From contig JAGLON010000018.1 in assembly GCA_023138975.1 (NCBI GenBank), positions 160,381 to 224,380 on the forward strand: a stretch of 64,000 nucleotides of DNA, in the 5' to 3' direction. Positions 9,015 through 46,107 of this stretch are shown in pieces (the stretch's first letter is position 1; each line of letters begins with the position of its first letter). The position numbers and the translations under genes were made by a program. The DNA comes from Candidatus Zixiibacteriota bacterium (lineage in GTDB: Bacteria; Zixibacteria; MSB-5A5; GN15; JAAZOE01). The notes under the pieces were generated by a model. It had not been told where the DNA came from. It worked only from the letters and a program-made list of their open reading frames with translations, and ran no database searches.

Positions 9015-9084
9015 CGGTAACCTCCTAAACCGCTTCACTAATCGCCTCGTCTTTAAAACCGCTTCATTCTGGTCATTTCTACCT

Positions 9085-9631: not shown

Positions 9632-9647
9632 TGCAAAGTCTGTGCCA
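9632..9647 (-). promoter_or_regulatory. sigma-54 (-24/-12) promoter of the pilin gene
   Basis: Minus strand reads TGGCAC-agact-TTGCA, an exact match to TGGCAC-N5-TTGCW with correct GG/GC spacing, about 60 nt upstream of the ATG at 9573. Confidence 0.75.
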
Positions 9648-19134: not shown

Positions 19135-22008
19135 ATGTTAAAGAGCCGTAAAACTTTAATTGCCGTTTTGTATTTTGTTTTAATTTGCAGTTCAGTTTTA
19201 TTTGCCGCCCAGCTTCAATTGACTACTCCGAGAATAACAGAAGAATTAGAAGAAGCTGCTAATACTCGAATTGAAGATTACACATCATATATCGATGCCA
19301 ATCGGATATTTATGTTTGTGACCAATGAAGGAATGTTCGGTCGTGACCTGGCTGGAGTTTTCGGAAACGACTACGGAACCTACTATCCATATACTTCTAC
19401 CTCTGATATCATAAACGGTTTTAATACCTCGTCGCCTCTCTATGCTGCTGGTATCTGGATTGGCGGAAAAGTAAATGGGCAGACAAGAGTGGCCGTCGCA
19501 GAGTATTCAACTGAATATGTTCCCGGACCTATGCAAAACGGAACCTATCAGCCCGATCAATATGATTTCAAAAATTACAAGCTCTACAATGATAGCATGG
19601 AAAGTAATCCAAATAGTGACTATCTCAATTGGCCCGTTGATCAGGGTGCTCCGGTTGATGAATCTGGAAGACCGGTAATTAAAGGCAACCAGATGCTATG
19701 GAGCGTCTATAATGACGCAAATCCATGGCAGCATATGAGTAACCCCGGAAATACTGATCCATTAGGTATTGAAATTCAACAGTCTGTATATGCTTATAAT
19801 ATGGGCGGATTTGACTCTACCATTATACCTTCAGCACTTGAAGTCACTCATCTGGGCAGCTCCGATATAGGTTTGTCGGCCTATGGAGCAACAACTGATG
19901 TTCTGGAGGGACATGAATACATGTTGATCGTCAAGAAATTTGGTCCAGCTTCACATGAATGGAGTTTATCAAACTTGACTTCGGGAACCATACTTCTGGA
20001 TAATCAAACTCATTCCAACTTTGGCCCGATAGAGGGTTTACGTATTAACCTGGATTTCGGGACATCGGCCATATGGGAGTATGAGAGTGCCACCCCGGCT
20101 AATATCAGCCCGGTTGCAATGCAGGATTATCCGTCCTATACCGGAGGCAGATGGTTTTCCGGTACGGATTTTGGAGGCGAACTCTTTTTTGGTGGTGTCT
20201 TCATGGAACCCAGCTTCTGGGGAGTAACATCGGTTGCGCCAAATGACATCAAGCCGGTAGAAATTCGATTTCAGCCTATGGCCTCGTACACGGATCTCAC
20301 CGGTGACGGACAGTATACCATCGGCGAACCGTTTACAGTCGATGATCCGGGCCAGACACAAGGCGCATTCATGTACTACACTTTTGACGGCAATGCCTAT
20401 GAAGGTTTCTATCCCATTCCGTTCACTGCCTGGGATATATCTGATCCGGGAAATCATCGTCAGCTGAATGTTATCATCAGAGATAGAGACCAAAACCATG
20501 CTTGGAATCTGTACAGCGATGAGTACAACGCCTCCCTTCCCAATGACGGTGATTTACGTTATAACTATACTTGGATACAAGATTCTGACTATGATCCGAC
20601 CGGTACATACTATGGCGATGGTTCCGGAGGTTCGATTGATTTTTGGTCCTATAATGGCGGAAACGGCATCTGGGACGGCATGTGGGTACTCTATCTGAGA
20701 GACCGGTATAACGGAGGTATGCTCGCCGAAGAAGGAACTTTCCGGCTTTTGCCCAATACTGGCATGTCTGTGGATACGTTTTTATTCACAGCCATAGCCC
20801 CCGAGGTGATTTTTAGCGGTCCTGAAGATCAGGCGATTTATCTTGAATATAAATTGTTTAACAAAGGCTCAAACACGATAAGTGATATGTATATATCAAT
20901 GTGGGCCGATCCCGATCTGGGAGGCTTGGCAGATGATCTGGTCGGATGTGATACTATCAATGATGTGTACTTCTGCTATAATCACGATAGTTATGATGAT
21001 CAGTATTTCGATAACCCACCCGCCTTAGGCTTCAAAGTCCTGCGTGGTCCGCTGGTTCCTTCTCCTGGAGATACGGCTTACTTTGACAATATCCCTGTTC
21101 CCAATTACAAGAATATAGGTATGTCATCGTTTAATCTCTATGTCAATGGAACTGATCCGGACAACGCTGCTGAAACGTATAACTACATGCAGGGCCTTCA
21201 GCGGAACGGCGCTCCTCTCCCGAACGGAACTAAATATATGGTTCCCGGCAATCCTGTAGCAGGCACCGGTGATTTAGATGCCGCACCTGCGGACAAGCGC
21301 ATGATGGCCAGCTTTGGACCGTTTAACTTCAATCCGGGCGACAATCAATATGTACTAGTCAAAATGGCCGTCGGACGAGGTGCTGATCGGTTAGAATCAA
21401 TTACTCGGGCCATTCAAGTTCTCAATAACGATCCCGGTGGATTCCCCGATGACCCGTATCAGATGCTCTGTTCGTTATACCCTGATCCTCAGTATGCCCT
21501 TTTTCAATATGCAATCGATCCGATTCTTGATACAATCATATTAGGTCGGCTCGGTGAAGATATTGAAGACATCAATCTGGCCTCTATTCGTATTAATAAT
21601 GACTTGGTACCAATATCCACAGAGTACTTAACCGAATACGAAGGCTTCGGCGGCCGTGTCCTCCGCATAATATTCAACGGCTCTGAATTTGTTGCAGGAT
21701 ATGGCGTTGTATGGGATATGCAGTCTAAGCCATATACTGTCTCCGGACAATTTTCAGACAGTTCGCCGCTATTTTATGAAGGGATCTTTTTGCTTCGAGG
21801 CCACACCAGCGGTGACGCCAATTCTGATGGAATAATAAACGCTGCTGATGCTGTCTATCTCATCAACTATATATTCAAAAGCGGCCCGGCGCCCGATCCG
21901 ATAGAACTGGGCGACGCTAACAATGACAGCAGGATTAATGTCGGCGATGCGGTCTTCTTGATAAATTACATCTTCCGCAACGGCCCGGCACCGGGGCAAC
22001 GGCAGTAA
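19135..22008 (+). CDS. large secreted protein with a C-terminal dockerin-like double repeat; N-terminal 850 aa of unknown function
   Basis: Signal peptide MLKSRKTLIAVLYFVLICSSVLFA, RBS AGGAGGG. C-terminus GDANSDGIINAADAVYLINYIF ... GDANNDSRINVGDAVFLINYIF (two EF-hand-like Ca loops). Confidence 0.85.
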   Translation: MLKSRKTLIAVLYFVLICSSVLFAAQLQLTTPRITEELEEAANTRIEDYTSYIDANRIFMFVTNEGMFGRDLAGVFGNDYGTYYPYTSTSDIINGFNTSSPLYAAGIWIGGKVNGQTRVAVAEYSTEYVPGPMQNGTYQPDQYDFKNYKLYNDSMESNPNSDYLNWPVDQGAPVDESGRPVIKGNQMLWSVYNDANPWQHMSNPGNTDPLGIEIQQSVYAYNMGGFDSTIIPSALEVTHLGSSDIGLSAYGATTDVLEGHEYMLIVKKFGPASHEWSLSNLTSGTILLDNQTHSNFGPIEGLRINLDFGTSAIWEYESATPANISPVAMQDYPSYTGGRWFSGTDFGGELFFGGVFMEPSFWGVTSVAPNDIKPVEIRFQPMASYTDLTGDGQYTIGEPFTVDDPGQTQGAFMYYTFDGNAYEGFYPIPFTAWDISDPGNHRQLNVIIRDRDQNHAWNLYSDEYNASLPNDGDLRYNYTWIQDSDYDPTGTYYGDGSGGSIDFWSYNGGNGIWDGMWVLYLRDRYNGGMLAEEGTFRLLPNTGMSVDTFLFTAIAPEVIFSGPEDQAIYLEYKLFNKGSNTISDMYISMWADPDLGGLADDLVGCDTINDVYFCYNHDSYDDQYFDNPPALGFKVLRGPLVPSPGDTAYFDNIPVPNYKNIGMSSFNLYVNGTDPDNAAETYNYMQGLQRNGAPLPNGTKYMVPGNPVAGTGDLDAAPADKRMMASFGPFNFNPGDNQYVLVKMAVGRGADRLESITRAIQVLNNDPGGFPDDPYQMLCSLYPDPQYALFQYAIDPILDTIILGRLGEDIEDINLASIRINNDLVPISTEYLTEYEGFGGRVLRIIFNGSEFVAGYGVVWDMQSKPYTVSGQFSDSSPLFYEGIFLLRGHTSGDANSDGIINAADAVYLINYIFKSGPAPDPIELGDANNDSRINVGDAVFLINYIFRNGPAPGQRQ

Positions 22009-22023
22009 TAGATTTTGCAGATT

Positions 22024-22056
22024 GACTGTGATTATTCCTTTGGGGTAATCACAGTC
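22024..22056. other. 11-bp-stem hairpin at convergent gene ends
   Basis: gactgtgatta-N11-taatcacagtc. Overlaps the 3-prime end of the minus-strand lipoprotein gene. No T-run. Confidence 0.4.
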
Positions 22057-22532
22057 ACTCGCACGTTGCGATTTTCTAAATGTAGTCGGCAAGGTAATAA
22101 TTCATCTACTCGTAAAAACATCTGATGAGAATCTGTGATATAGTCTGAAATAGCACAGCCTCTTTTCGTCATCGAATAATACGACCAAAACCCACCGTCA
22201 TAGCCAAATTCCGATACCGCCTCATTTGTTTCTACCCAAAGGAGTGTTTTGATATTGCGTACGTGATGCGCAAATTGTAACACCGTACTTGAAAAATATG
22301 AGACTTCAATATCATCAATTGTGCCCGCTTGAATCCCATCAATACCGGAGAAATCAAAAATGAATTGACAATGGGTTGTGTCGGCTGTCGGTATTATTTC
22401 GACGGTGAAAGTATCCATAAGAGTGTTTTGCGATCCGCTATTGTCAGGGTCAGTCGATTTTCCACACGATACTACTAACAGAAACACCAGAACTGCAATC
22501 AGACCGTAGTAAATGACATTAAACTTCTTCAT
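22032..22532 (-). CDS. hypothetical lipoprotein
   Basis: MKKFNVIYYGLIAVLVFLLVVSCG lipobox; 166 aa. Confidence 0.65.
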   Translation of the reverse strand: MKKFNVIYYGLIAVLVFLLVVSCGKSTDPDNSGSQNTLMDTFTVEIIPTADTTHCQFIFDFSGIDGIQAGTIDDIEVSYFSSTVLQFAHHVRNIKTLLWVETNEAVSEFGYDGGFWSYYSMTKRGCAISDYITDSHQMFLRVDELLPCRLHLENRNVRVTVITPKE

Positions 22533-22659
22533 GATCCCCTCCCATCAGAATAACGCCTACAGTATATAGACTATTATAATACTGTTTTTGTTTATTTTAG
22601 GCTATGAAATATTTCCTCACAGCATTTGCATTAGTCGATGATTGTACTATCAGCCTTGT

Positions 22660-23160
22660 AGATTTAACCACCCCCTCGCCCCCTCCTTACTAAGGAGGGG
22701 GATGGGGGAGGTTCGCTGTAAACATGGATAGTAGGGCAGGTTCCCTTAGGAACCTGCCAATGCCAAACATAGGTGACATTCCTATGGCAGGACCCCTAAC
22801 AATATTAGGACTATAGCCTTTATTTCCCCTCTCTAGAGGGGACCTGTATCACGCCATCTTAGTTTATAATTCATTTGAGATGTCCAGAATAATTGCTTGT
22901 GTGTTAAAATAGACTCCAATAATTAAACCTAAACTGCAGAAATTAACAACATCGTCCCCTCTATAAGAGGGGTGCCCGACAGGCTATAGTCCCGCTCTGC
23001 GGGGGCGGGGTGTGTTAACTTGTGGAAAGCGTAAAATGGGTTTACTTGTCTGTTTAGAAAATCTTTCGAGCGTAAGCGAGTTAGATTATCTTAATCCCGC
23101 ATTTTAATGCGGGACGACGAGTACTCCGTGGATGCTCATTTTTTAAAGTTTTTTGAGTAG
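22660..23160. repeat. hairpin-module mosaic A (REP/BIME-like)
   Basis: Modules shared with other gaps: 22666-22712, 22731-22766, 22808-22818, 22948-23018, 23053-23114, 23133-23154 (see findings). Confidence 0.85.
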
Positions 23161-23439
23161 TCCTGATTCGGTTGATATGCTGGCAATGCCTTATTGAGGC
23201 CACCCGGCATGGGTTTCTAGCTACCGCGGTAATTATAATATTCTTAAGGTTTACCGTGAACATAGTTATCCATTGTTTAGACTGTTAGTTATAGAGGTGT
23301 ATTCGAGATTTGCAGTGAATTGGTACTGAATCTGTTACCTAAGTGCCTAGGCTATAGTGTCACTCAATTTTCTGAGAGATACAATTTTGAATTTCTGTTT
23401 GAACAGATTGTATCATCTGTTTCCTGCGGACACAAAGCA

Positions 23440-23466
23440 CTTGGCGGGAGAATTCTCCCGCCCAAG
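23440..23466 (-). terminator. terminator-like hairpin after the FG-GAP/dockerin gene
   Basis: cttggcgggag-aatt-ctcccgcccaag, 24 nt past the stop. Weak T-run (tgctttgtg). Confidence 0.45.
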
Positions 23467-23489
23467 TATTTAATATTGTTCACTTTAGC

Positions 23490-25844
23490 TTATTTTCCGC
23501 ATCCGTCAAGCGGTGGGCCCCCATCCCGGAAAATGAAATTAATCAGATACACAGCATCAGCGAGATTAACAATTTCATCGCCATTCATATTTCCCGCACA
23601 TAAAGGACTTGGTGCAGCTCCAGCTCTAAAAATATAGTTAATGAGAAAAACAGCATCACTGAGGTGGAGAATCCCATCACCGTTGGCGTCACCGGGCACT
23701 ACTTGACTTCCATTACTAAAGGTCTTGTTATAAAGTGTGGCGTATACTGTTGTAATATCAATGTCTCCGTCAGAGTCAAAATCAATTCCTACCGGGTTGC
23801 TCCCAATGATATGATAATGATCGGGCTCAGCAAAAGTACCATCCCCGGCTCCCAACAAAACTGTCAAGTTGCCCGATATTACCCCGGTTATATCAGGAAA
23901 TCCATCGCTATTGATATCAGCGCACAAAGGCTGTCTGCCTCCACACTCGTAATGAACAGGACCTGAGAATGTCCCATTCCCATTATTTAGAAAGATTGAT
24001 GTATTATCGTCGGTTGAAGCCGCTATATCATTGTCTCCGTCATTATCAAAATCCTCCGCCAGCAAACCATAAACTCTATCAATACTGCCCGTAGTATAGC
24101 TTACCGTATCGGCAAATGTTCCATTACCGTTACTCAGCAAGACAACAAAGCCATCTACTATTCCATATTCCAAAAACACCAGATCAACATCACCATCATC
24201 ATCTAAATCAGTAACATCCATAGCACCGGGTGCACCCCCTTCATGAAGATAAGTAGCCGTGCCGAATGTCCCGTCACCGTTATTCAGGCTTATAAAGACG
24301 CCTGATGGATAACTTGAATACGAAATAGTTAGATCGATATCTCCATCCCCATCAAAATCTCCACCCGATAGATATTTGGCTTTACTCCCAATGGAAGAAA
24401 TAATAGCTGACCCAAAAGTTCCATCACCATTATTCGGATATATATATATATCCGTCAAAAGAGAAAATCCTACTGCCAAATCAATATAATCGTCACCGTT
24501 ATAATCAGAACCAAATACTGACAGCGGACGGTCAGGAAGTGCGATGTAGTACGGTGTGTTGTAGGGATCAGGACTATTATTCAGATAAACTGAAATAGAG
24601 CTATCGCTATAATTTGCAGTAGCAATATCATCATGCATCCAATCACCATCAAGGTCGCCGACCCACATATTATAAATCGATCTTACAGCCCGATAAGGTG
24701 TTCCAGCAAACGTTCCATCGCTATTATTCATCAAGACTGCAATTGCGGTTCCTTGACTTACTGCCAGATCAACATTTCCGTCATCATCAAGATCACCAGC
24801 AACCAGCGCGGCTTTGAGACTACCGCCATAATAACCTATTGGCGAAGCAAATGTTCCATCTCCATTGTTTGAAAGAATAGCAATAGTATACGTCCCTCCC
24901 CTGCCAACAACCGCCAGATCAATATCACCATCCGCGTCAAAATCGGCGGCATTTATAGTATTCGATTTTTCAGTTGCGGCATATTTAATAGCCGCACCAA
25001 AAGCACCACTGCCGTCATTTATAAGGATTGAAACGGTATCGGTAACGCTATTAGCGAAAGCAAGGTCCTTATAACCATCACCGTTAAAATCTGCTCCGGT
25101 TACAGAATTCTGAGCCTCACCCAGATCATAATAAACGCCTGCTGCAAACCCTCCAGAACCATTGTTCAGTCGAACGCAGGCACTATTACTTCCCTTGCTG
25201 CCGACCGCCACATCGATATCTCCATCACCATTCAGGTCAGATGCAAAAATTGAATAGGGCAAGGAGCCAACCGTATGGTAGGTGGGTGTTCCAAATACGC
25301 CTGTGCTATCGTTTAGCATTATTGAAATCTGGTTATTGGTAGTTGCTGTGATTACCAGATCATTATCAAAATCACCATCAATATCGGCTATCGTCACGAA
25401 TCGAGGCTGACCGTGAGTATAGTAGCTGATTCTACTTTCAAAGGTTCCATCACCATTATTTTTCGAAACAAAGACATTTCTGCTGCCGGTAAGAATACTG
25501 GATACGCACACCAGATCGATATCGTTATCACCATCAATATCGGCTCCGCTTATAGACATCGGCAACATCCCGGTTAGGTATTCCTCCGCTTCGGCATAGG
25601 TCCCATCGCCATTGTTCAGCAAAACCGAAATATAACTATTATTTTGCGCATCAACTCTTGTGTAAACAACCGCCAAGTCAATATCGCCATCACCATCAAA
25701 ATCCGCAGCGAACATATCCCCGGCACTCCAGACCTCATAAATGGGCGGAAGCCAGTCAAAAAGGTCACCGGCTATAACATTAGCTGTGGGCGTTGAAATC
25801 ATAAAAACGGTTAATATTGTGAGTGTCATCAGCAATTTTCGCAT
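23490..25844 (-). CDS. secreted FG-GAP/VCBS-repeat (beta-propeller) protein with a C-terminal dockerin-like double repeat
   Basis: At least 11 repeats of FxxADFDGDGDIDLxV type. C-terminus GDANGDGILHLSDAVFLINYIF ... NMNGDEIVNLADAVYLINFIF. Start set at MRKLLMTLTIL (25844, GGAGA RBS); the 94-codon upstream extension in the ORF track is rejected. Confidence 0.85.
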   Translation of the reverse strand: MRKLLMTLTILTVFMISTPTANVIAGDLFDWLPPIYEVWSAGDMFAADFDGDGDIDLAVVYTRVDAQNNSYISVLLNNGDGTYAEAEEYLTGMLPMSISGADIDGDNDIDLVCVSSILTGSRNVFVSKNNGDGTFESRISYYTHGQPRFVTIADIDGDFDNDLVITATTNNQISIMLNDSTGVFGTPTYHTVGSLPYSIFASDLNGDGDIDVAVGSKGSNSACVRLNNGSGGFAAGVYYDLGEAQNSVTGADFNGDGYKDLAFANSVTDTVSILINDGSGAFGAAIKYAATEKSNTINAADFDADGDIDLAVVGRGGTYTIAILSNNGDGTFASPIGYYGGSLKAALVAGDLDDDGNVDLAVSQGTAIAVLMNNSDGTFAGTPYRAVRSIYNMWVGDLDGDWMHDDIATANYSDSSISVYLNNSPDPYNTPYYIALPDRPLSVFGSDYNGDDYIDLAVGFSLLTDIYIYPNNGDGTFGSAIISSIGSKAKYLSGGDFDGDGDIDLTISYSSYPSGVFISLNNGDGTFGTATYLHEGGAPGAMDVTDLDDDGDVDLVFLEYGIVDGFVVLLSNGNGTFADTVSYTTGSIDRVYGLLAEDFDNDGDNDIAASTDDNTSIFLNNGNGTFSGPVHYECGGRQPLCADINSDGFPDITGVISGNLTVLLGAGDGTFAEPDHYHIIGSNPVGIDFDSDGDIDITTVYATLYNKTFSNGSQVVPGDANGDGILHLSDAVFLINYIFRAGAAPSPLCAGNMNGDEIVNLADAVYLINFIFRDGGPPLDGCGK

Positions 25845-26134
25845 GTAGGATTTCTCCATAGCTAATAGGATGGTAAATATCTTCATAATATCCCCCGATG
25901 GGTGAATAACTAGTAGATGTCCGCAAATCGATTTGCCCCAGTATAAACGGATAGGCCTACCCAAATGCCCCAAACTTGGTATTGTCTCGTGTGCTCTTTT
26001 GATGCCCCGCAACGCAATAATTGCATGCGGAGAAAAGTGATACTTGTATCTATATATAATATGCAATTGTGATTCTGTCAATAGAGCTTTTTCTTCAGAC
26101 TGTAAAGCCAATAAGAGTACTCTCAACCACAGAA

Positions 26135-26170
26135 CAAAAAAGCCCCTTCGAGGTTACTCAAAAGGGCTTT
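26135..26170 (-). terminator. rho-independent terminator after tRNA-Leu
   Basis: Minus strand reads aaagccctt...aaggggcttt followed by TTTTTTG. Confidence 0.6.
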
Positions 26171-26178
26171 CAAATCTA

Positions 26179-26262
26179 TGCCGAAGGAGGGATTCGAACC
26201 CTCACGCCCGTAAGGACACTGCGCCCTGAACACAGCATGTCTACCAGTTCCATCACTTCGGC
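26179..26262 (-). tRNA. tRNA-Leu (anticodon CAG), long variable arm, CCA not encoded
   Basis: Minus strand reads GCCGAAGTGATGGAACTGGTAGACATGCTGTGTTCAGGGCGCAGTGTCCTTACGGGCGTGAGGGTTCGAATCCCTCCTTCGGCA. 7-bp acceptor stem, anticodon stem CTGTG/CGCAG with loop TTCAGGG, GGTTCGAATCC T-loop. Confidence 0.9.
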
Positions 26263-26449
26263 TTTTCCGAGCAGATAATATATATAAATATTTGGACTAA
26301 GCAACTGTTTTTTCGTCCTAATATTGCAGCCAAAAAGCTCGGAACATTCACCCCATTTGCCGATTATAACTTGTAATGATTGTTTTTGTTGTTAATCGGG
26401 AAATGAAACCAGTTCTTGTGGAAGACCCGAATAGTTTTAAGGAGACTAA

Positions 26450-27817
26450 ATGAAAGTCTGTATTAGTGTTACTCTTCTCATCTGTCTGTTATTACCATTT
26501 CCAGTCTTTGCGGTATCGCCGTATCAGCAGGAAATTTATAGCGCTCGTGACCGTGTTTTACCGGCGCTTATTCATATTCAGCCGGTGGTAATCGACTACA
26601 TTACCGGCCGGGAAAAGAAACATTCCGTGGTCGGTTCGGGAATCATTATCTCCGCCGACGGCTACGCTGTAACCAACTATCATGTTGCCGGCCGAGCCGA
26701 GCGGATCATCTGCACCCTGCATGACAGGGAGCAGGTTCCTGCAGTCCTTATCGGAGGCGATCCGGCCACCGATCTGGCCGTTATCAAATTAGACCTTTCA
26801 GAGTATTCCGGCAAGCTTGACCCGGCTGTCTTCGGTTCATCAAGCGACTTGCAAGTTGGACAAACGGTGCTGGCACTGGGTTCTCCTCTGGCTCTATCCC
26901 GCTCGCTGTCCAAGGGCGTAATATCGACTTTAAACCGCTTCTTCCCCGGCAATATAAGACTTCCCTCCGGTGAAAAAACCGGTAAGTATAATACCTGGCT
27001 GCAAACCGACGCGGCCATCAACCCCGGCAACTCCGGCGGACCGTTAGTAAATCTTGATGGCGAAGTCATGGGGATAAATACCCGAGGCGTTTTCTTTGCC
27101 GAAAACATAGGCTTTTCGATTCCGGTTGATATCGTCAAGGAAGTAACGGCCAAGCTAATTGAATTCGGAAAGGTTGACCGCAGTTGGATTGGCGTTCACG
27201 CTCAACCGCTGCAGGATCTGGAATCATTCTTCGGAACCGAAACTAACCGCGGCGTATTGATAGCCTCAATCGACCCCGGCTCACCAGCTGAGAAAGCGGG
27301 ACTGAAGGCAGGACAGATTATCCTGAAATATAATGGCCATGATGTATCGGCCCGGTTTGAGGAAGAATTGCCGGCCTTTTATCAGATTATAGCATCTTCT
27401 CCAGCCAATACCGAAGTTGAAGTTGTTCTTCATAACGGTGATGATAAAGTTATAAAGATTATTCCGAGAGCGCTGGGCGCTCTTCAGGGTGATGATTTCG
27501 ATTTCGAGAAATGGGGTTTCACCGCCAAAGCGATTACCAATCAAATGGCTATCGATCGCAGACTCGATGATACTCTGGGCGTTTTTGTGACTCAATCGGC
27601 AATGGCCGGTGCCGCCTTTAGCGGAGGTCTTCATCGAGGCGATGTTATCATGGAGCTAAACAATAAACCGGTCAACAGCCTCGATGAACTAAAAACAACC
27701 TATGATGAAATGCAGGAAGCGGAAAAAATCCTTCTGACGATTAATCGTAGCGAAACCCGCCGCCTGGTCCTGATGAAACTGGACAACGAAGAGGATACTG
27801 AAGACGATGAAAAATAA
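26450..27817 (+). CDS. htrA: HtrA/DegP-family periplasmic serine protease with two PDZ domains
   Basis: Signal peptide. Catalytic TNYHV (His), DLAVIKL (Asp), GNSGGPLV (Ser). PDZ motifs GSPAEKAGLKAGQIIL and GLHRGDVIMELN. Confidence 0.9.
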   Translation: MKVCISVTLLICLLLPFPVFAVSPYQQEIYSARDRVLPALIHIQPVVIDYITGREKKHSVVGSGIIISADGYAVTNYHVAGRAERIICTLHDREQVPAVLIGGDPATDLAVIKLDLSEYSGKLDPAVFGSSSDLQVGQTVLALGSPLALSRSLSKGVISTLNRFFPGNIRLPSGEKTGKYNTWLQTDAAINPGNSGGPLVNLDGEVMGINTRGVFFAENIGFSIPVDIVKEVTAKLIEFGKVDRSWIGVHAQPLQDLESFFGTETNRGVLIASIDPGSPAEKAGLKAGQIILKYNGHDVSARFEEELPAFYQIIASSPANTEVEVVLHNGDDKVIKIIPRALGALQGDDFDFEKWGFTAKAITNQMAIDRRLDDTLGVFVTQSAMAGAAFSGGLHRGDVIMELNNKPVNSLDELKTTYDEMQEAEKILLTINRSETRRLVLMKLDNEEDTEDDEK

Positions 27818-29204
27818 GCTGTTTGTTCTAATAATCACGATGCTGTCCGTTTCAGTTCTTTGGGCCGGAGACGCTAATTTCCAAAAGCTGTTTGATAAAG
27901 TGAACCCGCACCTCGTTTCGGTGGAATATAAGGCCGAGATGAATTTTATGGGTCAGTCCGAAGATATCGAGGGACGTGTCCCCGGCATCATTATCAACGG
28001 CAATATTGTTATCTTCGACGGGACATCATTGGGAGCCGGAAGACTGGCAACCGACATGTACGGCTCGCCTCAGGTTGATAAACCGAAATCCATCAAAATC
28101 ACGGATTATAACGACAACACGTATGATGCCGAGTATATCGGCGTTGATGATTACAGTCTAATCGCGTTTTGCCGTCTCCCCGATTCGGCCATGAAAAACC
28201 TGAAAGCAGTAGAGCTTAAAAATAAATCATTGCGGCTGGGTGAGGAAGTTTACGTTTTCTGGATGCTGCCGAAAAGCTACAATCCCAAATATCAACTGAC
28301 CAAAACCAGAATCACCTCGGTCCTGACTAAACCGGAAAAATTCTATCTCACCGGTGAACTGCCTCAGGAGTTTGTTCTGTCTCCGGTCGTTACGGCCAAA
28401 GGAGAGATGATCGGTATTATCACCCCGGTAACACAGGTACCGTCTTATACCCGCTTTGATTACGGTAACGTTTTCGGCAATCCGGTCGGGATTATGCCTC
28501 TGGAGCGGTTTGAGAAAATCATCAATAACCCGCCCGAAGAGGATAAAGTAAAACGCGGCTGGATGGGAATTTCACTTCAGGCGCTCGACCCGGAAATTGC
28601 TGAATTCTGGGATGTCAAAGTTGACGGCGGGATTATCCTAACGGATATAATCGATAATTCTCCCGCGGAAAAGGCCGGTCTGAAAGCCGGTGATTTCTTG
28701 ATCAAACTCAACGGCGAATCAATTGATGTTACGGAAGATGAAAACATTTCTATCTTCCAAAAGAAAGTTTCCGAATTAGGCGCTGGCTCGGAAATTACAC
28801 TGCTCTATATTCGTCCCGGTGACAATCAAGTGGATTCGAATGAAGTTACCATCGTTTTGGCCGAACGGCCGGGCGCTCGCAGTGACGCTCCCAAGCATGA
28901 AGATGAAAACTTCGACCTGACGGTACGGGATATGGTTTTTGCCGACTATAATGCCCGTAATCTAAAAGAGGACGAAATCTCCGGCGTCATCGTCGAGAAA
29001 ATCGAACAAGGCGGATGGGCCGCGGTCGGAGGTCTCCGTACCGGTCTTATCATCACGCAAATCAATGGCAACGAGATTGTCTCGGTTGAGGACTTCAAGA
29101 CCATCATGGCCGAGATTGAGAGCAGCAAAGACAAAGAAGTTGTATTCATGACGTGGCGGCGCAACAAGACAAAATTTGTGCACGTCAAAACCCACTGGGA
29201 ATAA
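27807..29204 (+). CDS. HtrA-like protein with two PDZ domains but a degenerate catalytic triad (pseudo-protease)
   Basis: Overlaps htrA by 11 nt. Where htrA has TNYHV it has VIFDG, and where htrA has GNSGGPLVNLDGEVMGI it has EFVLSPVVTAKGEMIGI. PDZ motifs NSPAEKAGLKAGDFLIKLNG and GLRTGLIITQING. Confidence 0.8.
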   Translation: MKNKLFVLIITMLSVSVLWAGDANFQKLFDKVNPHLVSVEYKAEMNFMGQSEDIEGRVPGIIINGNIVIFDGTSLGAGRLATDMYGSPQVDKPKSIKITDYNDNTYDAEYIGVDDYSLIAFCRLPDSAMKNLKAVELKNKSLRLGEEVYVFWMLPKSYNPKYQLTKTRITSVLTKPEKFYLTGELPQEFVLSPVVTAKGEMIGIITPVTQVPSYTRFDYGNVFGNPVGIMPLERFEKIINNPPEEDKVKRGWMGISLQALDPEIAEFWDVKVDGGIILTDIIDNSPAEKAGLKAGDFLIKLNGESIDVTEDENISIFQKKVSELGAGSEITLLYIRPGDNQVDSNEVTIVLAERPGARSDAPKHEDENFDLTVRDMVFADYNARNLKEDEISGVIVEKIEQGGWAAVGGLRTGLIITQINGNEIVSVEDFKTIMAEIESSKDKEVVFMTWRRNKTKFVHVKTHWE

Positions 29205-29902
29205 GGGAGGATGCCCCCCCTTTTTTAGGCTATTTAGAAAATCTTACGAGTTATAACGAGTTAGATTATCTTAATCCCGCGTTTTAATGCGGGAACGCGT
29301 AGATGACCTGGGTTTTATAATCATGAGTTTGCTTTTATACGGCACAGCTTCGCCTGCCTGAAGATATAAACTTTTTTTCTGACAGGGATACTCCCTTTTC
29401 AGGCAAAGCCTACTACTAAAAAGATGATTTTATAATTAACCACCCCCCATCCCCCTCCTTAGTAAGGAGGGGGGTTTCGACATTGTTCTGCCATTGTAAC
29501 TGGTCATATCCCGGCAGATGTAGATATCCCGCAACGCAGGACAATAGCCTGCCAGGCACAAAACTCCATTATGAAATTCGGTAGGTCAAGACCCCTGCGG
29601 TCTTGACAGTCGGTAGGGCAAGTTCACCCCCTACATGGGCACAATAGCCCTTAGGAACCTGCCATTGCCAACCAAAGGTTGGCAACCTAGATTCCCGCCT
29701 GCCATCAGAGGATAACTTTGTTTTTATGGTCAATCCTCTTCGTAGGGGCTGACTATGTCAGCCCGAAAAGACTTTGGCTGTGATTCCATCCGGGTCGACA
29801 GAGTCGCCCCCTACAGGGAAAATAGAATCCACTTTTTATAGAAAATGTTCAGACCATTTTTCGCCACCAATGGGTGCGGTACAAACTGCTCTAACCTACT
29901 CT
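29205..29902. repeat. hairpin-module mosaic B (REP/BIME-like)
   Basis: Modules at 29233-29294, 29346-29362, 29438-29475, 29520-29549, 29581-29607, 29637-29668, 29742-29814 and 29857-29885, all with copies in other gaps. Confidence 0.85.
29742..29814 (+). repeat. 73-bp REPIN-like inverted doublet (copy 1)
   Basis: GTAGGGGCTGAC-tat-GTCAGCCC ... GGGTCGAC-aga-GTCGCCCCCTAC. The reverse complement of 46035-46107 aligns end to end. Confidence 0.8.
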
Positions 29903-31945
29903 TTACTTCATTGATTTTAACGCTTTTTCGATATTATCTTTTTGAGGACTGTCGGGTACTTGCTCAAGATAGTAAGTCAAATATTTCTCTGCCTTTTTGC
30001 CATCTTTAACATAATAAGCACTGTACCCTGCTAATACATAGTTCTCTAGTCTTTCTGGAAGCACAGATGTCATTTTTTCATAATACACCAACGCCGAATC
30101 ATATTTCTGTAATGTGAAATATGCTGTTGCCATTGCTTCTGTCACTCGGTGATACTCAGGATCAATCTTCAGAGCCTTGTTATAATACTGAAACATTCTA
30201 TAATAATCTTTTATCTTAAAATATAGAACGCCCAAATTTGCATGATTTATTGAACTGTAAGGTTCAAATTCCAGTGCAAGTTTAAGATCAGATTCAGACT
30301 TTTTTAACTGGCCTAAATTTAAATAGGTTACTCCTCGTAGAGCATAAGATCCCGCTTTGTAGGGTTCGATGTTAACAAGCTTATGAGCCAATGGCAGCGC
30401 TTCAGCATACTTTCCCGCAGTATTCAGCCCTTCGGCCTGTCGCAGATAGGTTATTTCTGGAAAAATCTGGCGCGTATGCATTTGAGTACTATTTGCCTGA
30501 GCAGAATCGCCCAAATTTAAATAGTAGTCCTGTAAAACCACATACCCGGTTTTGCTTTTTGGCGTATCAAGTTTCAATAAGTATGTGTAGTAATCTATGG
30601 AAGGTTTAGTCTGCAAATTAACAAAAAAGTATGGTAGTATTAAGAGAAATGACAGAATCGTAATGGCCGGAATAAACTGCTTATGGCGTGTATTACCAAA
30701 ATTCATTGAGGCCAACAAAAGAAGCAACAGCGCAAAACCGCATAGAGAAAACAAGTCCCAATCTCGTCCCATACCAATTCGGGGGTCGAGGATCAATATC
30801 AAACCTAAACCTCCGATAAAAAATACCCATAGGAAATTGCGGGCTGGAGATTTGCCGTTGGCTTTTCGATTTTTTATAGCAAAGTAGAGTAATATTGGCC
30901 ATAGAGGAACCAAGAGGCTGAATTCATTGATAATATCAAGCATATGCGAAATAGAAATCAGTGCATACTCCGTCGCAGGAGCCCGCCCTGAGAATAATGG
31001 CAGAAAATGAACTTCGAATCCGGGCGACGTAAAGTATTTGTAGAAGAATAAGACGGCACCCCCGGCAATTAAAACAGATGCCCCGATCAGGAAGATAGTT
31101 TTGTATTTCTCGAAGAGTTTTCTACCTGGATTAATCGCAATTAATAATACTGGCATTGAGATAAGGAAAAACAGGCTTTGCAGATGCATCACAATAGCAA
31201 GCAAGGCTAACAATACCGGCCAAATAATTCCGCAGTTCTTGTTTATATACTTCAGTGAAAAATAAACATAACCGGATATTGATGCCCACAGAAGCGGATA
31301 ATTTTCAGCATACCCCATAAACAGGAGCATCCACCCGCTGAAAATTGAAAGCGCAAGAATAAATAGTCGATTGATATTCTCCTGAGTTATCTCAAAAGCT
31401 ATCCCGCACAGGAAGAAAACAGTAACGCCTCCGGATAAGACAGAGACTACAGCAAAGGCGGTTTCGCCTCCCTCTTTGCCGGCAACCGGTAATATTGAAT
31501 AGACAAGTTTGACAACAGCAATCGATCCGATTTCCGTCCACTTATACATGACCGGGTTATCGCTCCCGATGTGACCGATAACAGTATATCCGTCTCCCAG
31601 AAAATGAGTCGGCATCTTAAGGATCCAGAAAAGAATCATAAGGACTACTGAAAAAAGCATCCACTTGATCTGTTTCTTACCGGAAAATAGAAATCCGAGA
31701 GATTCAAAAAGTTGAAGAACCGCCTTGTTAAAACTCTTAATTAGAAACAGAAACAAAAGAAGAAAACAGCAGAGATAAGGAATCAGGGTAGCATCCGGTA
31801 AAAACTGCAGATGATTAAATCCCCAAATACGACCTTCTGGAAGAACCAGGTGAATGAAACGTACGAGAACCAGCATCAATCCCAATGCAGTGACTATGAT
31901 TGGGTTGATTGTGTAGTTTTGATCATTGTAAGAATTGCTTTTCAT
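29903..31945 (-). CDS. multi-pass membrane protein with C-terminal TPR repeats (GT-C-like architecture; family not recognised)
   Basis: 680 aa, about 12 TM helices, then TPR-like repeats (AEALPLAHKLVNIEPYKAGSYALRGVTYLNLGQLKKSESDLKLALEFEP...). Confidence 0.7.
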   Translation of the reverse strand: MKSNSYNDQNYTINPIIVTALGLMLVLVRFIHLVLPEGRIWGFNHLQFLPDATLIPYLCCFLLLFLFLIKSFNKAVLQLFESLGFLFSGKKQIKWMLFSVVLMILFWILKMPTHFLGDGYTVIGHIGSDNPVMYKWTEIGSIAVVKLVYSILPVAGKEGGETAFAVVSVLSGGVTVFFLCGIAFEITQENINRLFILALSIFSGWMLLFMGYAENYPLLWASISGYVYFSLKYINKNCGIIWPVLLALLAIVMHLQSLFFLISMPVLLIAINPGRKLFEKYKTIFLIGASVLIAGGAVLFFYKYFTSPGFEVHFLPLFSGRAPATEYALISISHMLDIINEFSLLVPLWPILLYFAIKNRKANGKSPARNFLWVFFIGGLGLILILDPRIGMGRDWDLFSLCGFALLLLLLASMNFGNTRHKQFIPAITILSFLLILPYFFVNLQTKPSIDYYTYLLKLDTPKSKTGYVVLQDYYLNLGDSAQANSTQMHTRQIFPEITYLRQAEGLNTAGKYAEALPLAHKLVNIEPYKAGSYALRGVTYLNLGQLKKSESDLKLALEFEPYSSINHANLGVLYFKIKDYYRMFQYYNKALKIDPEYHRVTEAMATAYFTLQKYDSALVYYEKMTSVLPERLENYVLAGYSAYYVKDGKKAEKYLTYYLEQVPDSPQKDNIEKALKSMK

Positions 31946-32039
31946 TGACTAGTCCGTGTTTTTTGACTTATTCAAGCTATAATATAAGTCAAAATAATGG
32001 CTTTGGATATCAAGTTATCTATTTTTTCTATTGGCTCAA

Positions 32040-32640
32040 TAATAAAGAGAAGGTCAAGACCTACCCACTGCGTGGGTACTATAGCCTGTGATCCTGACAT
32101 TGCCAACTGTTTTTCAAACGGGTCATTTCACCGCGCAAAATGCAACATCGTCCCCTCTATGAGAGGGGTGCCCGACAGGGCGGGGTGTGTTAATGCAATC
32201 TCATCCAATTCGCGCTCTGCGCGAAACGGCTTCGCCTGCCTGAAATTCTTCTACCCGGTATCCCACGGCTTCAGCCGTGGGTTTTTCCTTATTGATAGCA
32301 AGTCGACTAATTTCGCACCCAATGGGTGCGGTACACTGTAGCCACAAATCATCTACTAATAACATACACACATTTTCGCCACAACTTCGTTGGTGATTTC
32401 GAATTGCTCATCTTTTTATAGATATCCTTATATGTTATAGCGGAGAGACCATTATGCTCGCCTGTAAAAACCAAATCAAATTCAATCGCCAAAACGACCA
32501 ACTTTCAATCTTGCTTATTTCTGGCAATTTACACAAAGCCGAAAACAAAAAAACTTTAAAAAATGAGCAAGCAAACCCAATTCCTCGTAACGCCCTGTAT
32601 GGTAATCAGTAACGAGACTTTTTAAGGAAATAGGTCTCAA
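32040..32640. repeat. hairpin-module mosaic C (REP/BIME-like)
   Basis: Modules at 32052-32105, 32144-32192, 32228-32244, 32262-32281, 32311-32338, 32548-32569 and 32610-32628, with copies in other gaps. Confidence 0.85.
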
Positions 32641-32708
32641 AAAATATACGTTAATATGAAAAACAAAGCCATTTTCCGGATGAAAAACGCGAAGTACTCG
32701 TCGTAGAC

Positions 32709-32994
32709 GAGTGTCTCCCCTGCGAAAGCAGGGGTCCATGCCGAGATTGACTTTGCTTGGGCATGGATTCCCGTTTTCACGGGAATGACAAAATGATAAT
32801 TTGAGTATTAGAGTGTCTCCCCTGCGAAAGCAGGGGTCCATGCGGAGATTGACTTTGCTTGGGCATGGATTCCCGTTTGCACGGGAATGACAAAATGATA
32901 ATTTGAGTATTAGAGTGCCTCCCCTGCGAAAGCAGGGGTCCATGCGGAGATTGACTTTGCTTGGGCATGGATTCCCGTTTTCACGGGAATGACA
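32709..32994. repeat. tandem repeat, 102-bp unit x 2.8, each unit carrying three hairpins
   Basis: Units start at 32711, 32813 and 32915 with only about 3 substitutions in total. Hairpins cccctgc-gaaa-gcagggg, ccatgc..gcatgg and attcccg-ttttca-cgggaat. Confidence 0.9.
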
Positions 32995-33109
32995 TATCTG
33001 AAATTGGCTCAAATAATAAAACTTATTAGGATAATGCCAAACTTTTCAAATCTACTTTCCAATCTGACTTGACAATGGTTTTGCCACCATTTTGCCTGTT
33101 TTTGATTCC

Positions 33110-33124
33110 GGCACAGGCTTTGCA
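33110..33124 (+). promoter_or_regulatory. sigma-54 (-24/-12) promoter of the cohesin/T9SS gene
   Basis: cGGCAC-aggct-TTGCA with the GG-to-GC offset of 12 nt, 95 nt upstream of the ATG at 33219. An AT-rich tract lies between it and the tandem repeat. Confidence 0.6.
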
Positions 33125-33218
33125 ATATATACACTTCAGAATATGAAGAACTTATTGAACGACATACTATTGAGAGAATATATCGTATAATGATAGAGGA
33201 GTAGAAAGGACCGACATC

Positions 33219-34064
33219 ATGAAACATATGCTAAAGCATTTCACAGTGGCTGCAATAGTTTTCGCACTTTGCACAATTGCCGCACCGGTTTTCGCTGTTG
33301 ATATATCGGTTGGGTCTGCGACAGGCGCTCCGGGAGATCAAGTTGTTGTTCCCGTTTACCTTAACAACAATGACGTCAGGATTGCGTCTCTTACCGTACC
33401 GCTTCAGTTCTCCAATACCTACCTTAATATCGATTCGGTATCTTACGCAGGAACACTCATAAAGCCGAATATGTCTCCCCTGACCCATATCGATAACCCG
33501 GGGCAGTTTTTACGGATCACTTATATTCCCAGCGCCGGTCTACCACTGATTGAGGATTCTCAGGGACTGCTGGCCAATATTTACTTCACGATCTCTCCAT
33601 CGTCCCCGGATCATATTATTTACGTGGACTCGGTAAATAGTTTGACAACCATACAGAGCCTTGATATATGGGTGCGTATGGAAATTAGCGATTCTCTGGG
33701 AGAGAGCTTGGTCTTTCCTGACTTCTCAGCCGGGACAGTCGAAGTCAGAAATCCTCTTGATGCCGATGATGATGAATTTGGTTTGCCTAATGTACTGGCC
33801 TTGAACCAGAATTATCCTAACCCGTTCAACCCGACAACGACAATCAAGTTGGCCGTTCCTGTTGCCTCCGATTATTCATTGGAGATTTACAACATTGCCG
33901 GTCAGAAGATTCGTTCCTTCAGTGGCTTTGCCAATGCTGGAAACGTTGAAATCGTGTGGGATGGTAAGGACAATTCCGGCAGCACGGTTGCTACAGGTGT
34001 CTATTTCTACAAGGTTATAGCTGGAGAATTCTCCGCTACCAAGAGAATGGTCATGCTGAAGTAA
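33219..34064 (+). CDS. secreted cohesin-domain protein with a T9SS type-A C-terminal sorting domain
   Basis: Signal peptide. Cohesin-like ISVGSATGAPGDQVVVPVYLNNNDVRIASLTVPLQFSNTYLNIDSV. C-terminus LNQNYPNPFNPTTTIKLAVP...GVYFYKVIAGEFSATKRMVMLK (Por_Secre_tail pattern). Confidence 0.8.
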   Translation: MKHMLKHFTVAAIVFALCTIAAPVFAVDISVGSATGAPGDQVVVPVYLNNNDVRIASLTVPLQFSNTYLNIDSVSYAGTLIKPNMSPLTHIDNPGQFLRITYIPSAGLPLIEDSQGLLANIYFTISPSSPDHIIYVDSVNSLTTIQSLDIWVRMEISDSLGESLVFPDFSAGTVEVRNPLDADDDEFGLPNVLALNQNYPNPFNPTTTIKLAVPVASDYSLEIYNIAGQKIRSFSGFANAGNVEIVWDGKDNSGSTVATGVYFYKVIAGEFSATKRMVMLK

Positions 34065-35798: not shown

Positions 35799-35819
35799 AA
35801 CTACTACATTCTAAGCACC

Positions 35820-36045
35820 GTCATACCCGTGAAAACGGGTATCCAGAGCGGAGTTCGGTCAATCTCACTACTGGATTCCCGACTCGTCCCGTTTTACGGA
35901 ACTCTCGGGAATGACAGGGAGATGGCAACCGCTGGCTAGCAATGGCAGGATAGTTACCCACTGCGTGGGCACTATAGCTCGTGATCCTGACATTCGTGCG
36001 AAGCACGATAAGTACTCGTAAAGGTGACAGGCTATAATACCCACA
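35820..36045. repeat. hairpin-module mosaic D
   Basis: 35823-35842, 35871-35918, 35955-35994 and 36030-36042 have copies elsewhere. Confidence 0.8.
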
Positions 36046-37439: not shown

Positions 37440-37790
37440 TGCTAACCACCCCCATCCCCCTCCTTGGTAAGGAGGGGGCGAAGGGGAGGTCTTCCTGTCC
37501 TAAACAAAAAAGTCTCGTTACTTCTTATCACACAGAGCGTTATAGCGAATTGGCTTCACTCGTCTTTGACGAGTACCCTGTGCTTGCTCACTTTTAAGGT
37601 TTTTATTTTTTGAATTAAGATTTAGCGGTTCAGAGGATAGATCTCGTCTCTGTGAGATTGCTGTTTTCATCAGTTTCCCTTTTTGATGGTGTTTACTAAA
37701 GAATCTATCTTCGGGATTTGAATCGAATTGGTAGTGAAAGTGTTGCTGTTACCGATGAGGACATCCCGCATAGCAGGACTATAGTCTGCC
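37440..37790. repeat. hairpin-module mosaic E
   Basis: 37444-37490, 37505-37610 (about 75% identical to the reverse complement of 32545-32630) and 37757-37786. Confidence 0.8.
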
Positions 37791-38489: not shown

Positions 38490-38575
38490 GCCAACCTGCG
38501 ATTGGCAATGTCAGGAGCACGGGGCTCCTGACCTACGGGGCTATAGTGCCCCACGCAGTGGGTAGGTTTTGACCA
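38490..38575. repeat. hairpin-module cluster H
   Basis: The reverse complement of 38502-38573 matches 32052-32105 with an internal GTAG-headed hairpin (gtaggtcaggagc-cccgt-gctcctgac). Confidence 0.8.
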
Positions 38576-39930: not shown

Positions 39931-40046
39931 GTGGGCGGCAGATGTCCCATCTGCCCCTTAAATACAAAAACGGGTATATGGTTCACTGTTGTTTTTCTGG
40001 ATTCCCGACTCGTCCGCCTAACGTGCGGACTCTCGGGAATGACAGG
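39931..40046. repeat. hairpin-module cluster G
   Basis: GTGG-headed hairpin gcggcagatg-tcc-catctgcccc (39931-39957), and ctggattcccga...tcgggaatgacagg (39997-40046), a paralogue of 35871-35918. Confidence 0.8.
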
Positions 40047-40704: not shown

Positions 40705-42078
40705 TTATTTCATTTTGGCCGGCTGGGCCAAATTAAATTTCTTTATTTTTCGCCACAAAGTCGTTCGTCCTATGCCCAGTTGGTTGGCGGTTAATGAATG
40801 ATTCCAGTTATTCTCTTCAAGCGATTTCAGTATTTGCAGTTTTTGACCATCCTGCAACGAGCGGGTACTTAATGAAATAGTTGGATGAGTTGTCAATTGT
40901 GTTTCTCTCGGTGAAATGAAGATAATGTCCTCATATTGAATCTGATTGCGCCCCGAAAGAGCCACTGCCCGTTTGAGAGTATTTTCCAACTCCCGGACGT
41001 TGCCGGGCCAGTTGTGCTTGAGAAGTAATTCGAGACCGTCGGCCGACAATGTAATCGGTGACCGGTTGTATTCTTTGGAAATGTTCTTCAAAAAGTATTC
41101 TGCCAGCGCCGGAATATCCTCGGGCCGTTCCCGGAGTGCTGGAATAAGTATTGGCATTACATTGAGCCGGTAATAAAGATCCTCGCGGAAGGTGCCCTCG
41201 CTGACCATCTTACTCAAATCAGCATTAGTCGCGGCAATGATTCGAACATTAATCTTGCGGGAATGATTGCCTCCCACCGGACGGACTTCTTTTTCCTGTA
41301 AAACGCGCAGGATTTTTGCCTGAAGCGGGTAGGGCAGATCGCCGACTTCGTCTAAGAATATCGTGCCGCCTTCAGCTTCCTCAAAAAGACCCTTTTTATT
41401 GGTAATGGCATTAGTAAAGGAGCCTTTAACGTGTCCGAATAACTCGGATTCCAAGAGATTTTCCGGGATGGCGGAGCAGTTGATGGGAACGAATGACTTG
41501 TCACGGCGGTCACTATGATGATGGGTCACCTTGGCGAATAATTCTTTGCCGGTACCTGATTCCCCGGTAATCAGAATCGAGATATTCATTCCGGCTATTC
41601 GATCGATGACCGATTTCAGATTGTCAATAATCTTTGAGGTTCCAATGATATTATCATACCCGAATTGATGAGCAACTTCCTGCCGTAGGTAACGGATAGT
41701 ATGTCTCAGGTCGATATGTTCTAGAGCTTTATTTACTTTGAAAACAACTTCAGCGCTTTTAAATGGTTTGGTGATATAATCCGAGGCGCCGTTTAGAATT
41801 GCCTGAACTGCGGTTTCGACGGTTCCGTAGGCGGTCATAATAATAACTTCGGTTTCTGGATGGATTCGCTTGGAATTCATTAATATATCAAGCCCTGAAT
41901 CTGAACCCAGGCGGAGATCGGTTAACACTAAATCAAAAACCTGTGATTCAAGATGAATGATGGCTTCTTTTTTATCCTGTGCTACAGAGGTATCAAATCC
42001 ATTCTTTGTAAATAACCTGAAAAGCATATTCCGCATTCCGGGTTCATCATCAACTATCAAAATCGAGGGCATTACCAC
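40705..42078 (-). CDS. sigma-54-dependent response regulator (REC + AAA+ + HTH)
   Basis: ILIVDDEPGM...DLVLTDLRLG, GESGTGKE, GSFTNA (GAFTGA variant), ELFGH, ANQLGIGRTTLWRKIKKF. Confidence 0.9.
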   Translation of the reverse strand: MVMPSILIVDDEPGMRNMLFRLFTKNGFDTSVAQDKKEAIIHLESQVFDLVLTDLRLGSDSGLDILMNSKRIHPETEVIIMTAYGTVETAVQAILNGASDYITKPFKSAEVVFKVNKALEHIDLRHTIRYLRQEVAHQFGYDNIIGTSKIIDNLKSVIDRIAGMNISILITGESGTGKELFAKVTHHHSDRRDKSFVPINCSAIPENLLESELFGHVKGSFTNAITNKKGLFEEAEGGTIFLDEVGDLPYPLQAKILRVLQEKEVRPVGGNHSRKINVRIIAATNADLSKMVSEGTFREDLYYRLNVMPILIPALRERPEDIPALAEYFLKNISKEYNRSPITLSADGLELLLKHNWPGNVRELENTLKRAVALSGRNQIQYEDIIFISPRETQLTTHPTISLSTRSLQDGQKLQILKSLEENNWNHSLTANQLGIGRTTLWRKIKKFNLAQPAKMK

Positions 42079-45950: not shown

Positions 45951-46034
45951 ATAGTACCTAGCAGATGTGGACCTCCCGCAAGGCAGGACTATATCCTTCG
46001 GCCTCCTCGCAGTGACGGGTTAATTACTTTCGAG

Positions 46035-46107
46035 GTAGGGGACGACTCTGTCGTCCCGTCTGGAATCACTACATGAAATTTTTCGGGCTGACAAAGTCAG
46101 CCCCTAC
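46035..46107 (-). repeat. 73-bp REPIN-like inverted doublet (copy 2, inverted relative to 29742-29814)
   Basis: GTAGGGGACGAC-tct-GTCGTCCC ... GGGCTGAC-aaa-GTCAGCCCCTAC. Confidence 0.8.

Follow-up and report, generated by a model that had tools for sequence, protein, structure and literature searches.

The tandem array at positions 32709-32994 of the DNA stretch analyzed here is very likely a non-coding cluster of CGTC-tagged repetitive extragenic palindromes (REPs) of the family CGTC-1, the type known in Neisseria as dRS3 or NTS repeats and elsewhere as the "Ssn-related motif" (SRM). The stretch, called the window below, comprises 64,000 nucleotides from a Candidatus Zixiibacteriota bacterium (contig JAGLON010000018.1), and an earlier note made from its letters alone had singled out the array as a near-perfect run of three 102-bp units. 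It represents a known kind of element in a new host lineage (Zixibacteria) and in a slightly unusual placement, and not a new kind of element.

Tandem Repeats Finder, applied to the 64-kb window, reports one strong array at this position (period 102, 2.8 copies, 97% matches, score 551), and a repeat search and an alignment of the units support the same extent, to which no strand is assigned and which is identical in the ENA assembly. The units occupy positions 32709-32810, 32811-32912, and 32913-32994. Because unit 3 ends directly after ...GGGAATGACA, the layout is dimer-spacer-dimer-spacer-dimer, with three head-to-head hairpin dimers and two AT-rich spacers of ~20 nt. Exactly three substitutions are present within the 86-nt core common to the units: C in unit 1 versus G in units 2 and 3 at position 32742, T>G at a loop position (32879) in unit 2, and T>C at 32918 in unit 3, which converts a TGTC tag to TGCC. 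Thus, the description of three near-perfect 102-bp copies with about three substitutions in total was accurate, and its reading as recent amplification is upheld in the sense that near-identical copies indicate recent tandem amplification or homogenization of a repeat element. The "spacers" do not differ from one another, which ruled out a CRISPR-like array.

In each unit, two tagged REP hairpins form a head-to-head heterodimer with the tags on the outside, accompanied by ~20 nt of AT-rich flank that has been duplicated along with it. The left hairpin, read on the plus strand, consists of TGTC / TCCCCTGC / GAAA / GCAGGGGT / CCATGC, and the right hairpin, read on the minus strand, consists of TGTC / ATTCCCGT / GAAA / ACGGGAAT / CCATGC, with a conserved spacer of 25 nt between them. 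Left hairpins, identified by scan and fold as CGTC-1-like structures running from the tag to CCA, are located at 32712-32738 and 32814-32840, where they are the same and have a broken first stem pair (T.T), and at 32916-32942, where the tag is mutated. The right hairpins at 32763-32790 (unit 1) and 32967-32994 (unit 3) are likewise the same, end in CCAT, and fit both the dRS3 and SRM patterns, and the one at 32865-32892 (unit 2) carries the loop GCAA for GAAA, which is still within the NTS loop consensus GMAV. The inner spacer (32736-32766 in unit 1, recurring at 32838-32868 and 32940-32970; no strand) was delineated by folding, inverted repeats, and alignment. Within it the inverted CCATGC tails pair with each other, and this pairing is what the earlier note had counted as a second of three hairpins per unit. 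That count holds insofar as three predicted stems fold per unit on either strand (DNA minimum free energy of -22 to -25 kcal/mol, z of -5 to -6.6; z of -7.4 for the whole array folded as RNA), but in reality there are two REP hairpins, and the middle stem is formed by their tails. The stems of the two dimer partners are non-complementary, so the whole dimer cannot form a single long hairpin.

Several patterns place these hairpins in the CGTC-1 family. We scanned the window for GTC followed by an 8-bp stem, a loop, and CC, permitting at most one mismatch in the stem and a loop of 3-8 nt, and recovered seven sites in 64 kb versus 0.1 in resampled sequence. Five of the seven are within the array and one is at 35820, and the left hairpin of unit 3 was missed because its tag is mutated. 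The dRS3 pattern ATTCCC-N8-GGGAAT has three matches in the window versus 0.02 expected, which are exactly the three right hairpins. Similarly, the published SRM pattern, HGTCWYN(0-2)YYVSBRHN(0-5)WNVSBRGN(0-2)RNCYNB (PMC11893778), has four matches versus 0.16 expected, comprising the three right hairpins and positions 35819-35846 and nothing else. CGTC-1 elements have an unpaired terminal CGTC tag, for which TGTC or CCTC is permitted; the tag is TGTC in five of the six array hairpins, TGCC in the remaining one, and CGTC at 35819. The 8-bp stem and 4-nt loop are perfect in the right hairpins, whereas the left hairpins form seven of the eight pairs. The tails fit the CCA of the family, reading CCAT in each of the six array hairpins and CCAG at 35819. 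The tags are on the outside in all three units and in a further dimer at 35819-35920, and the spacer motif GAGATTGAC, which lies within the inner spacer of the unit, is common to both. At the gathering threshold, Rfam 15 gave no matches in the window, and at a permissive E-value it gave only chance sub-threshold matches over the array, one of which is the same hairpin type embedded in Francisella FtrB.

The organization of the array also corresponds to what has been described for the family. In a 2013 survey, CGTC-1 REPs have tails that fit CCA and occur mainly in the form of HH dimers, where HH denotes head-to-head with tags outside; HH spacers are conserved, heterodimers are common, and clusters consist of "dimers reiterated in tandem with flanking DNA" (PMC3733652). 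The array shares all of these characteristics, including partners with different stems, and like the published elements it coexists with GTAG-tagged REPs and has no adjoining transposase gene. The survey recorded CGTC repeats in Proteobacteria, Chlorobi, Bacteroidetes, Spirochaetes, and Thermotogae (PMC3733652), and Zixibacteria are outside these five phyla; among the papers searched, none links REPs to Zixibacteria. The CGTC-1 elements of Neisseria are the dRS3 repeats, and dRS3-type repeats there were redefined in 2025 as NTS, CGTCATTCCCGCGMAVGCGGGAATCYRG (PMC11893778). The right hairpins are exact matches to ATTCCC-N8-GGGAAT. Four of their positions depart from the NTS consensus, including two that make up a compensatory stem pair, and the first and last bases of the element are T for C and T for G. 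NTS is recognized by SsnA, a 94-aa GIY-YIG protein that binds and cuts it as single-stranded DNA and on one strand only; cleavage requires three bases before the stem, and binding requires the C after the stem (PMC11893778). Both critical positions are kept in the array hairpins, with GTC ahead of the stem and C behind it. The earlier note was correct that the unit belongs to a hairpin family seen elsewhere in the window on both strands, but it did not recognize the family itself as CGTC-1 REPs of the dRS3/NTS/SRM type.

The window contains additional copies. A second head-to-head dimer at 35819-35920, in the orientation opposite to that of the array, was evident from the scan, the repeat search, alignment, and the SRM pattern. 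Its plus-strand hairpin at 35819-35846 reads CGTC/ATACCCGT/GAAA/ACGGGTAT/CCAG and is of the right-hand hairpin type of the array with two compensatory changes. Its partner at 35871-35918 is a long-loop ATTCCCGA...TCGGGAAT hairpin with the tag on the minus strand and a second hairpin nested in its loop. A long-loop singleton (ATTCCCG...CGGGAAT-GACA) is located at 39997-40046 on the minus strand between convergent genes. The variants at 35871-35918 and 39997-40046 had been reported previously and both exist, as versions whose loop encloses a further hairpin; a closer copy at 35819-35846 had been overlooked. The dimer lies in a co-directional gap and the singleton in a convergent gap, and both are downstream of genes.

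Outside this genome, the exact 25-mer of the left hairpin, CCCCTGCGAAAGCAGGGGTCCATGC, is present in four other phyla, represented by Sedimentisphaerales, Thermaceae, Gemmatimonadales, and Sphingomonas, where it again forms GTCA-stem-GAAA-stem-TCCA hairpins, arranged as inverted pairs or clusters. The inverted partners of that hairpin elsewhere usually have a different stem (ATTCCTGC, ATGCCCGC, or ACCCCAGC). Thus, the tag, loop, and tail of the hairpin are conserved across phyla, and the stems vary. The head-to-head pair of a ACCCCTGC hairpin and a ATTCCCGC hairpin, in the same order as in the array, occurs at at least 120 metagenome loci. In most of the listed metagenome pairs the spacer measures 11-12 nt and a CTGTTGCGGAAA...TTTCCGCAACAG palindrome encloses the pair, which gives them the appearance of a miniature inverted-repeat transposable element (MITE). 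This MITE-like element is very abundant (L010-L129 from JGI sediment metagenomes, and L001 and L004 from Sedimentisphaerales metagenome-assembled genomes [MAGs]), and it shares with the array the two partners, their head-to-head order, the TGTC tags, and the GAAA loops. However, the array unit lacks the outer palindrome, its spacer measures 25 nt, and its right hairpin closes with a T-A pair. Several MITE-like copies have an extra hairpin nested in the right-hairpin loop, as at 35871 and 39997, which suggests that this loop is a recurrent insertion point. Tandem clusters of the array's hairpin type were also found elsewhere, at locus L115 (2 x 125 nt) and at locus L130 (about ten 42-nt copies). 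The latter, positions 265-665 of an 893-nt contig (ENA ERZ764753), consists of ~10 head-to-tail units with TGTCATTCCCGTGAAAACGGGAATCCA, exactly the right-hand hairpin of the window, and was annotated as a 193-aa protein. The exact 43-nt unit core had no matches in JGI metagenomes, where either the organism or this particular variant is absent.

We propose that two adjacent dimers became three by unequal recombination or replication slippage between near-identical dimers, which is how such clusters are described in other bacteria, and that this expansion may be recent or homogenization may be ongoing. The array would act at the DNA level as extruded hairpins. In single-stranded DNA, each strand would extrude one "forward" tagged hairpin per unit, and these hairpins could be recognized by an Ssn-type nuclease, should the genome encode one. 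In Neisseria and Wolbachia, small GIY-YIG Ssn nucleases bind such hairpins and cut just upstream of the stem. If an Ssn homolog were present in the MAG, this locus would be a natural substrate with three forward sites per strand. The array is positioned in a 1273-bp gap between divergent genes, one for a tetratricopeptide repeat (TPR) membrane protein (29903-31945, minus strand) and the other for a cohesin protein with a type IX secretion system (T9SS) tail (33219-34064, plus strand). In this presumably non-transcribed gap between two divergent promoters it is probably a tolerated selfish or commensal repeat and would not be a dedicated regulator of the cohesin gene.

Several observations weigh against the assignment to CGTC-1 REPs and against the role just proposed. 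The left hairpin falls outside the SRM pattern, and its stem does not begin with the A-T and T-A pairs typical of CGTC elements: these are present in the right hairpins (AT...AT), whereas the left hairpins have TC...GT, and relatives of the left hairpin in other phyla have stems beginning with AC. REPs are found mainly downstream of genes, between convergent or co-directional open reading frames (ORFs), according to the survey (PMC3733652), but the array is between divergent genes. Just three CGTC-family loci are present in the ~88 kb of genome covered by the window and its extensions. A search of the window and 24 kb of extensions gave no Ssn-type GIY-YIG gene, which is likewise missing from the gene tables retrieved, and no RAYT (REP-associated tyrosine transposase) or other transposase gene; the window ORFs scanned include no Y1 transposase. 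The proposed link to an Ssn enzyme is one of analogy. A Zixibacteria relative (14 kb; 45% identity) has no CGTC hairpins and no synteny. Furthermore, the array may have acquired a co-opted local function. We consider it rather unlikely that the array is a functional cluster of Ssn targets at the 5' edge of the T9SS surface-protein gene in this uncultivated FCB-group phylum that would shape recombination or uptake of single-stranded DNA, and that might serve as an architectural element between the divergent promoters as well. NTS clusters in Neisseria act around surface-antigen genes, and the array resembles the NTS-containing Neisseria mosaics (NIME) in that its hairpins are clustered in a mosaic intergenic region beside a surface-protein gene. 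Among 120 metagenome loci, the search for GIY-YIG/Ssn or RAYT genes gave a single GIY-YIG ORF, which is accompanied by a different flanking inverted repeat and is uninformative. This small ORF (L042, ~11330-11640) is located between two oxidoreductase-subunit genes with the inverted repeat GAGCCCCGTTAGACCT / AGGTCTAACGGGGTGAGC and without flanking CGTC hairpins.

Whether the tandem structure or copy number could be an artefact of assembly was judged by comparing assemblies, and we regard this explanation as unlikely. An ENA assembly of the same sample is 100% identical to window positions 19903-33838, including all three copies, so that 2.8 copies of the same sequence are present in two assemblies, and the three copy-specific substitutions provide a signature for each copy. 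In contrast, the 508-kb NCBI contig DAOWAE010000002.1 breaks off within unit 2, at window position 32874, five bases short of a copy-specific single-nucleotide difference, and all assemblies appear to come from one sample; even so, the broken contig retains 1.6 units in tandem. Therefore, the tandem structure is solid and reproducible, although one assembler was unable to traverse it, and three copies is a minimum that comes from one set of reads. Also in favor of an artefact is the probable misjoin of the window 0.8 kb from the array. The ENA scaffold departs from the window after 33838 into a different tail and a protein kinase, whereas the NCBI contig DAOWAE010000005.1 matches the window only from 33807, upstream of which it encodes an 872-aa protein and not the cohesin gene. 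The 32 nt common to both continuations (33807-33838) encode the T9SS motif NYPNPFNPTTTI inside the cohesin gene, and the sign of the GC skew flips there, with each alternative continuation keeping the sign of its own side. On the basis of these departures and the skew flip, the window is probably chimeric, with the join at 33807-33838. On one side of the join are the array, the promoter, and the N-terminus of the cohesin protein, and on the other are RuvX, MltG, the 35819 dimer, and an enhancer-binding protein (EBP) gene at 40705-42078; the two sides are still part of one MAG. A replication origin with iterons, considered in view of the cumulative GC-skew minimum at ~33-34 kb, was rejected because there are no DnaA boxes with one mismatch or fewer in 30-36 kb and because the skew sign change coincides with the probable join. 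Logan contigs end within other repeat modules of the window, at 29786, 32171, and 35986.

An ORF of 165 aa (32515-33012, minus strand) does read through the array, as had been noted, and because the period is a multiple of three, one frame is open throughout; nevertheless, we give next to no credence to a real protein with 34-residue repeats. One of the six frames in the unit is free of stops, and over 34 codons at least one frame would be open with a probability of ~0.6. The codon-usage score of the ORF is -0.16 bits/codon, where real genes score 0.26 +/- 0.06 in frame and -0.53 +/- 0.17 out of frame, placing it ~7 SD below real genes. Its start codon is TTG without a Shine-Dalgarno-like sequence, it has no Pfam match above the cut-off, and a search against 5.8 billion proteins gave one weak match that is itself a head-to-tail hairpin array. 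The gene calls displayed for the ENA and NCBI contigs lack the ORF, and the peptide words CHSRENGNP and MDPCFRRGD are merely the hairpins in translation. The ORF is thus spurious and, as previously proposed, a by-product of the palindromes. A second rival explanation is that the array serves as an upstream activating or architectural element for the cohesin gene, with EBPs or a bending protein binding the repeated dyads. A sigma-54-type -24/-12 element (CGGCAC-N5-TTGCA) is indeed predicted at 33109-33124 on the plus strand upstream of this gene; it has one mismatch to TGGCAC-N5-TTGCW and begins 115 nt past the array end, as the earlier note had it, with AT-rich DNA between. EBP genes are present in the window, and E. 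coli bacterial interspersed mosaic elements (BIMEs) bind IHF and gyrase. However, the same hairpins occur in unrelated contexts of four other phyla and therefore have not evolved as the sites of a local regulator. No sigma-54 site is near the 35819 dimer or the 39997 singleton, and a perfect sigma-54 promoter at 9632-9647 has no CGTC hairpins upstream, so array and promoter are not paired at these loci. EBP sites would be expected in the region nearest the promoter, whereas the array covers positions from about -115 out to -400, counted from the -24/-12 element, and short direct repeats at 33044-33076 are closer. By-eye comparison of the inner spacer with WATCAANNNNTTR revealed no match to an IHF site. 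The EBP encoded at 40705-42078, which had been put forward as a candidate to bind the array, is beyond the probable chimeric join and may be unlinked to the array. Taken together, we find a regulatory role of this kind quite improbable. Slightly less probable still is that the array is transcribed and functions as a structured RNA, whether as a small RNA, a processing or stabilizing element, or a roadblock for a long leader. Its predicted structure is strong and the same on both strands, weak sigma-70-like matches arise at the dimer-spacer junctions, and REPs elsewhere are often transcribed and stabilize mRNA 3' ends (PMC3733652). In contrast, the array belongs to no Rfam family, has no flanking terminator-like site, and lies between the likely promoters of two divergent genes and upstream of both, and SsnA, the only enzyme demonstrated to act on hairpins of this type, fails to bind them as RNA (PMC11893778).

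The assignment to CGTC-tagged REPs is further clarified by comparison with other repeat systems. E. coli BIME-2 elements, which are tandem Y-Z2 REP pairs, likewise have alternating REP orientation, are amplified with their linkers, and can vary in copy number, but they are GTAG-tagged and RAYT-associated, whereas the array is CGTC-tagged, and there is no sequence relationship. REPINs are similar in that two inverted REPs plus a spacer form one dispersed unit (PMC3116915). However, they have GTAG tags and a single-copy RAYT flanked by the same REPs, while TGTC tags are present here, no RAYT was seen, and the non-complementary stems of the dimer partners preclude the single long hairpin.

A conspicuous array is thereby explained without a new system, its spurious ORF is flagged, and CGTC-tagged REPs of the dRS3/NTS/SRM type are extended to Zixibacteria. 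The recurrence of the ACCCCTGC plus ATTCCCGC heterodimer across distant phyla fits the idea that the repeat co-evolves with a conserved small nuclease for single-stranded DNA. The locus also illustrates how hairpin modules break or mislead assemblies, given that one public contig ends in the array.

The direct repeats at 33044-33076, between the array and the sigma-54 promoter, have a period of 12-13 (TTTCAAATCTAC / TTTCCAATCTGAC) and are more conventional candidate regulator sites than the array. Only two sigma-54-like sites with one mismatch or fewer are present in the window, both upstream of a correctly oriented gene. The perfect element, TGGCACAGACTTTGCA at 9632-9647 on the minus strand, is upstream of paralogous type IV pilin genes at 9142-9573 and 8583-9038. 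It is adjoined by the ORF at 9828-11213, an EBP gene according to the earlier note, which has repeats in common with the confirmed Sigma54_activat gene at 40705-42078. Exact-protein look-up returned no record for the cohesin protein (with two start choices) or for RuvX. The TPR protein shows 100% identity to a protein from a "candidate division Zixibacteria" MAG.

The window is rich in hairpins more generally. Perfect hairpins of at least 8 bp number 31 versus 6.5 expected, with 25 located in the 16% of the DNA that is intergenic, and six or more further repeated modules are found in the 1273-bp gap around the array. Two 88-nt GTAG-tagged inverted hairpin dimers of REPIN-like form (GTAGGGGCTGAC...GTCAGCCCCTAC) are located at 29737-29824 and 46025-46112 and are 80% complementary to each other; they suggest that a RAYT-type system exists elsewhere in the genome alongside the CGTC family. 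At least four further families of short hairpin modules, such as CCCCCTCCTT-nnn-AAGGAGGGGG and CCCACTGCGTGGG...CCTGACATT, are present in long intergenic regions. Their positions are 22679-22701, 29451-29473, and 37456-37478; 32062-32101, 35955-35994, and 38550-38574; 32143-32179 and 22947-22983; and 29517, 37754, 45964, and 46161. Immediately left of the array, a module of ~80 nt, AAAAACTTTAAAAAATGAGCAAGCA...AGTAACGAGACTTTTT, occupies 32548-32623, is overlapped by a 52-aa ORF called by gene finders (32454-32612), and recurs on the minus strand at 37507-37610 and 23133-23154. A small palindrome, ACTCGTC-nnn-GACGAGT, adjoins the array at 32692-32710 and recurs within the 37.5-kb copy of this module.

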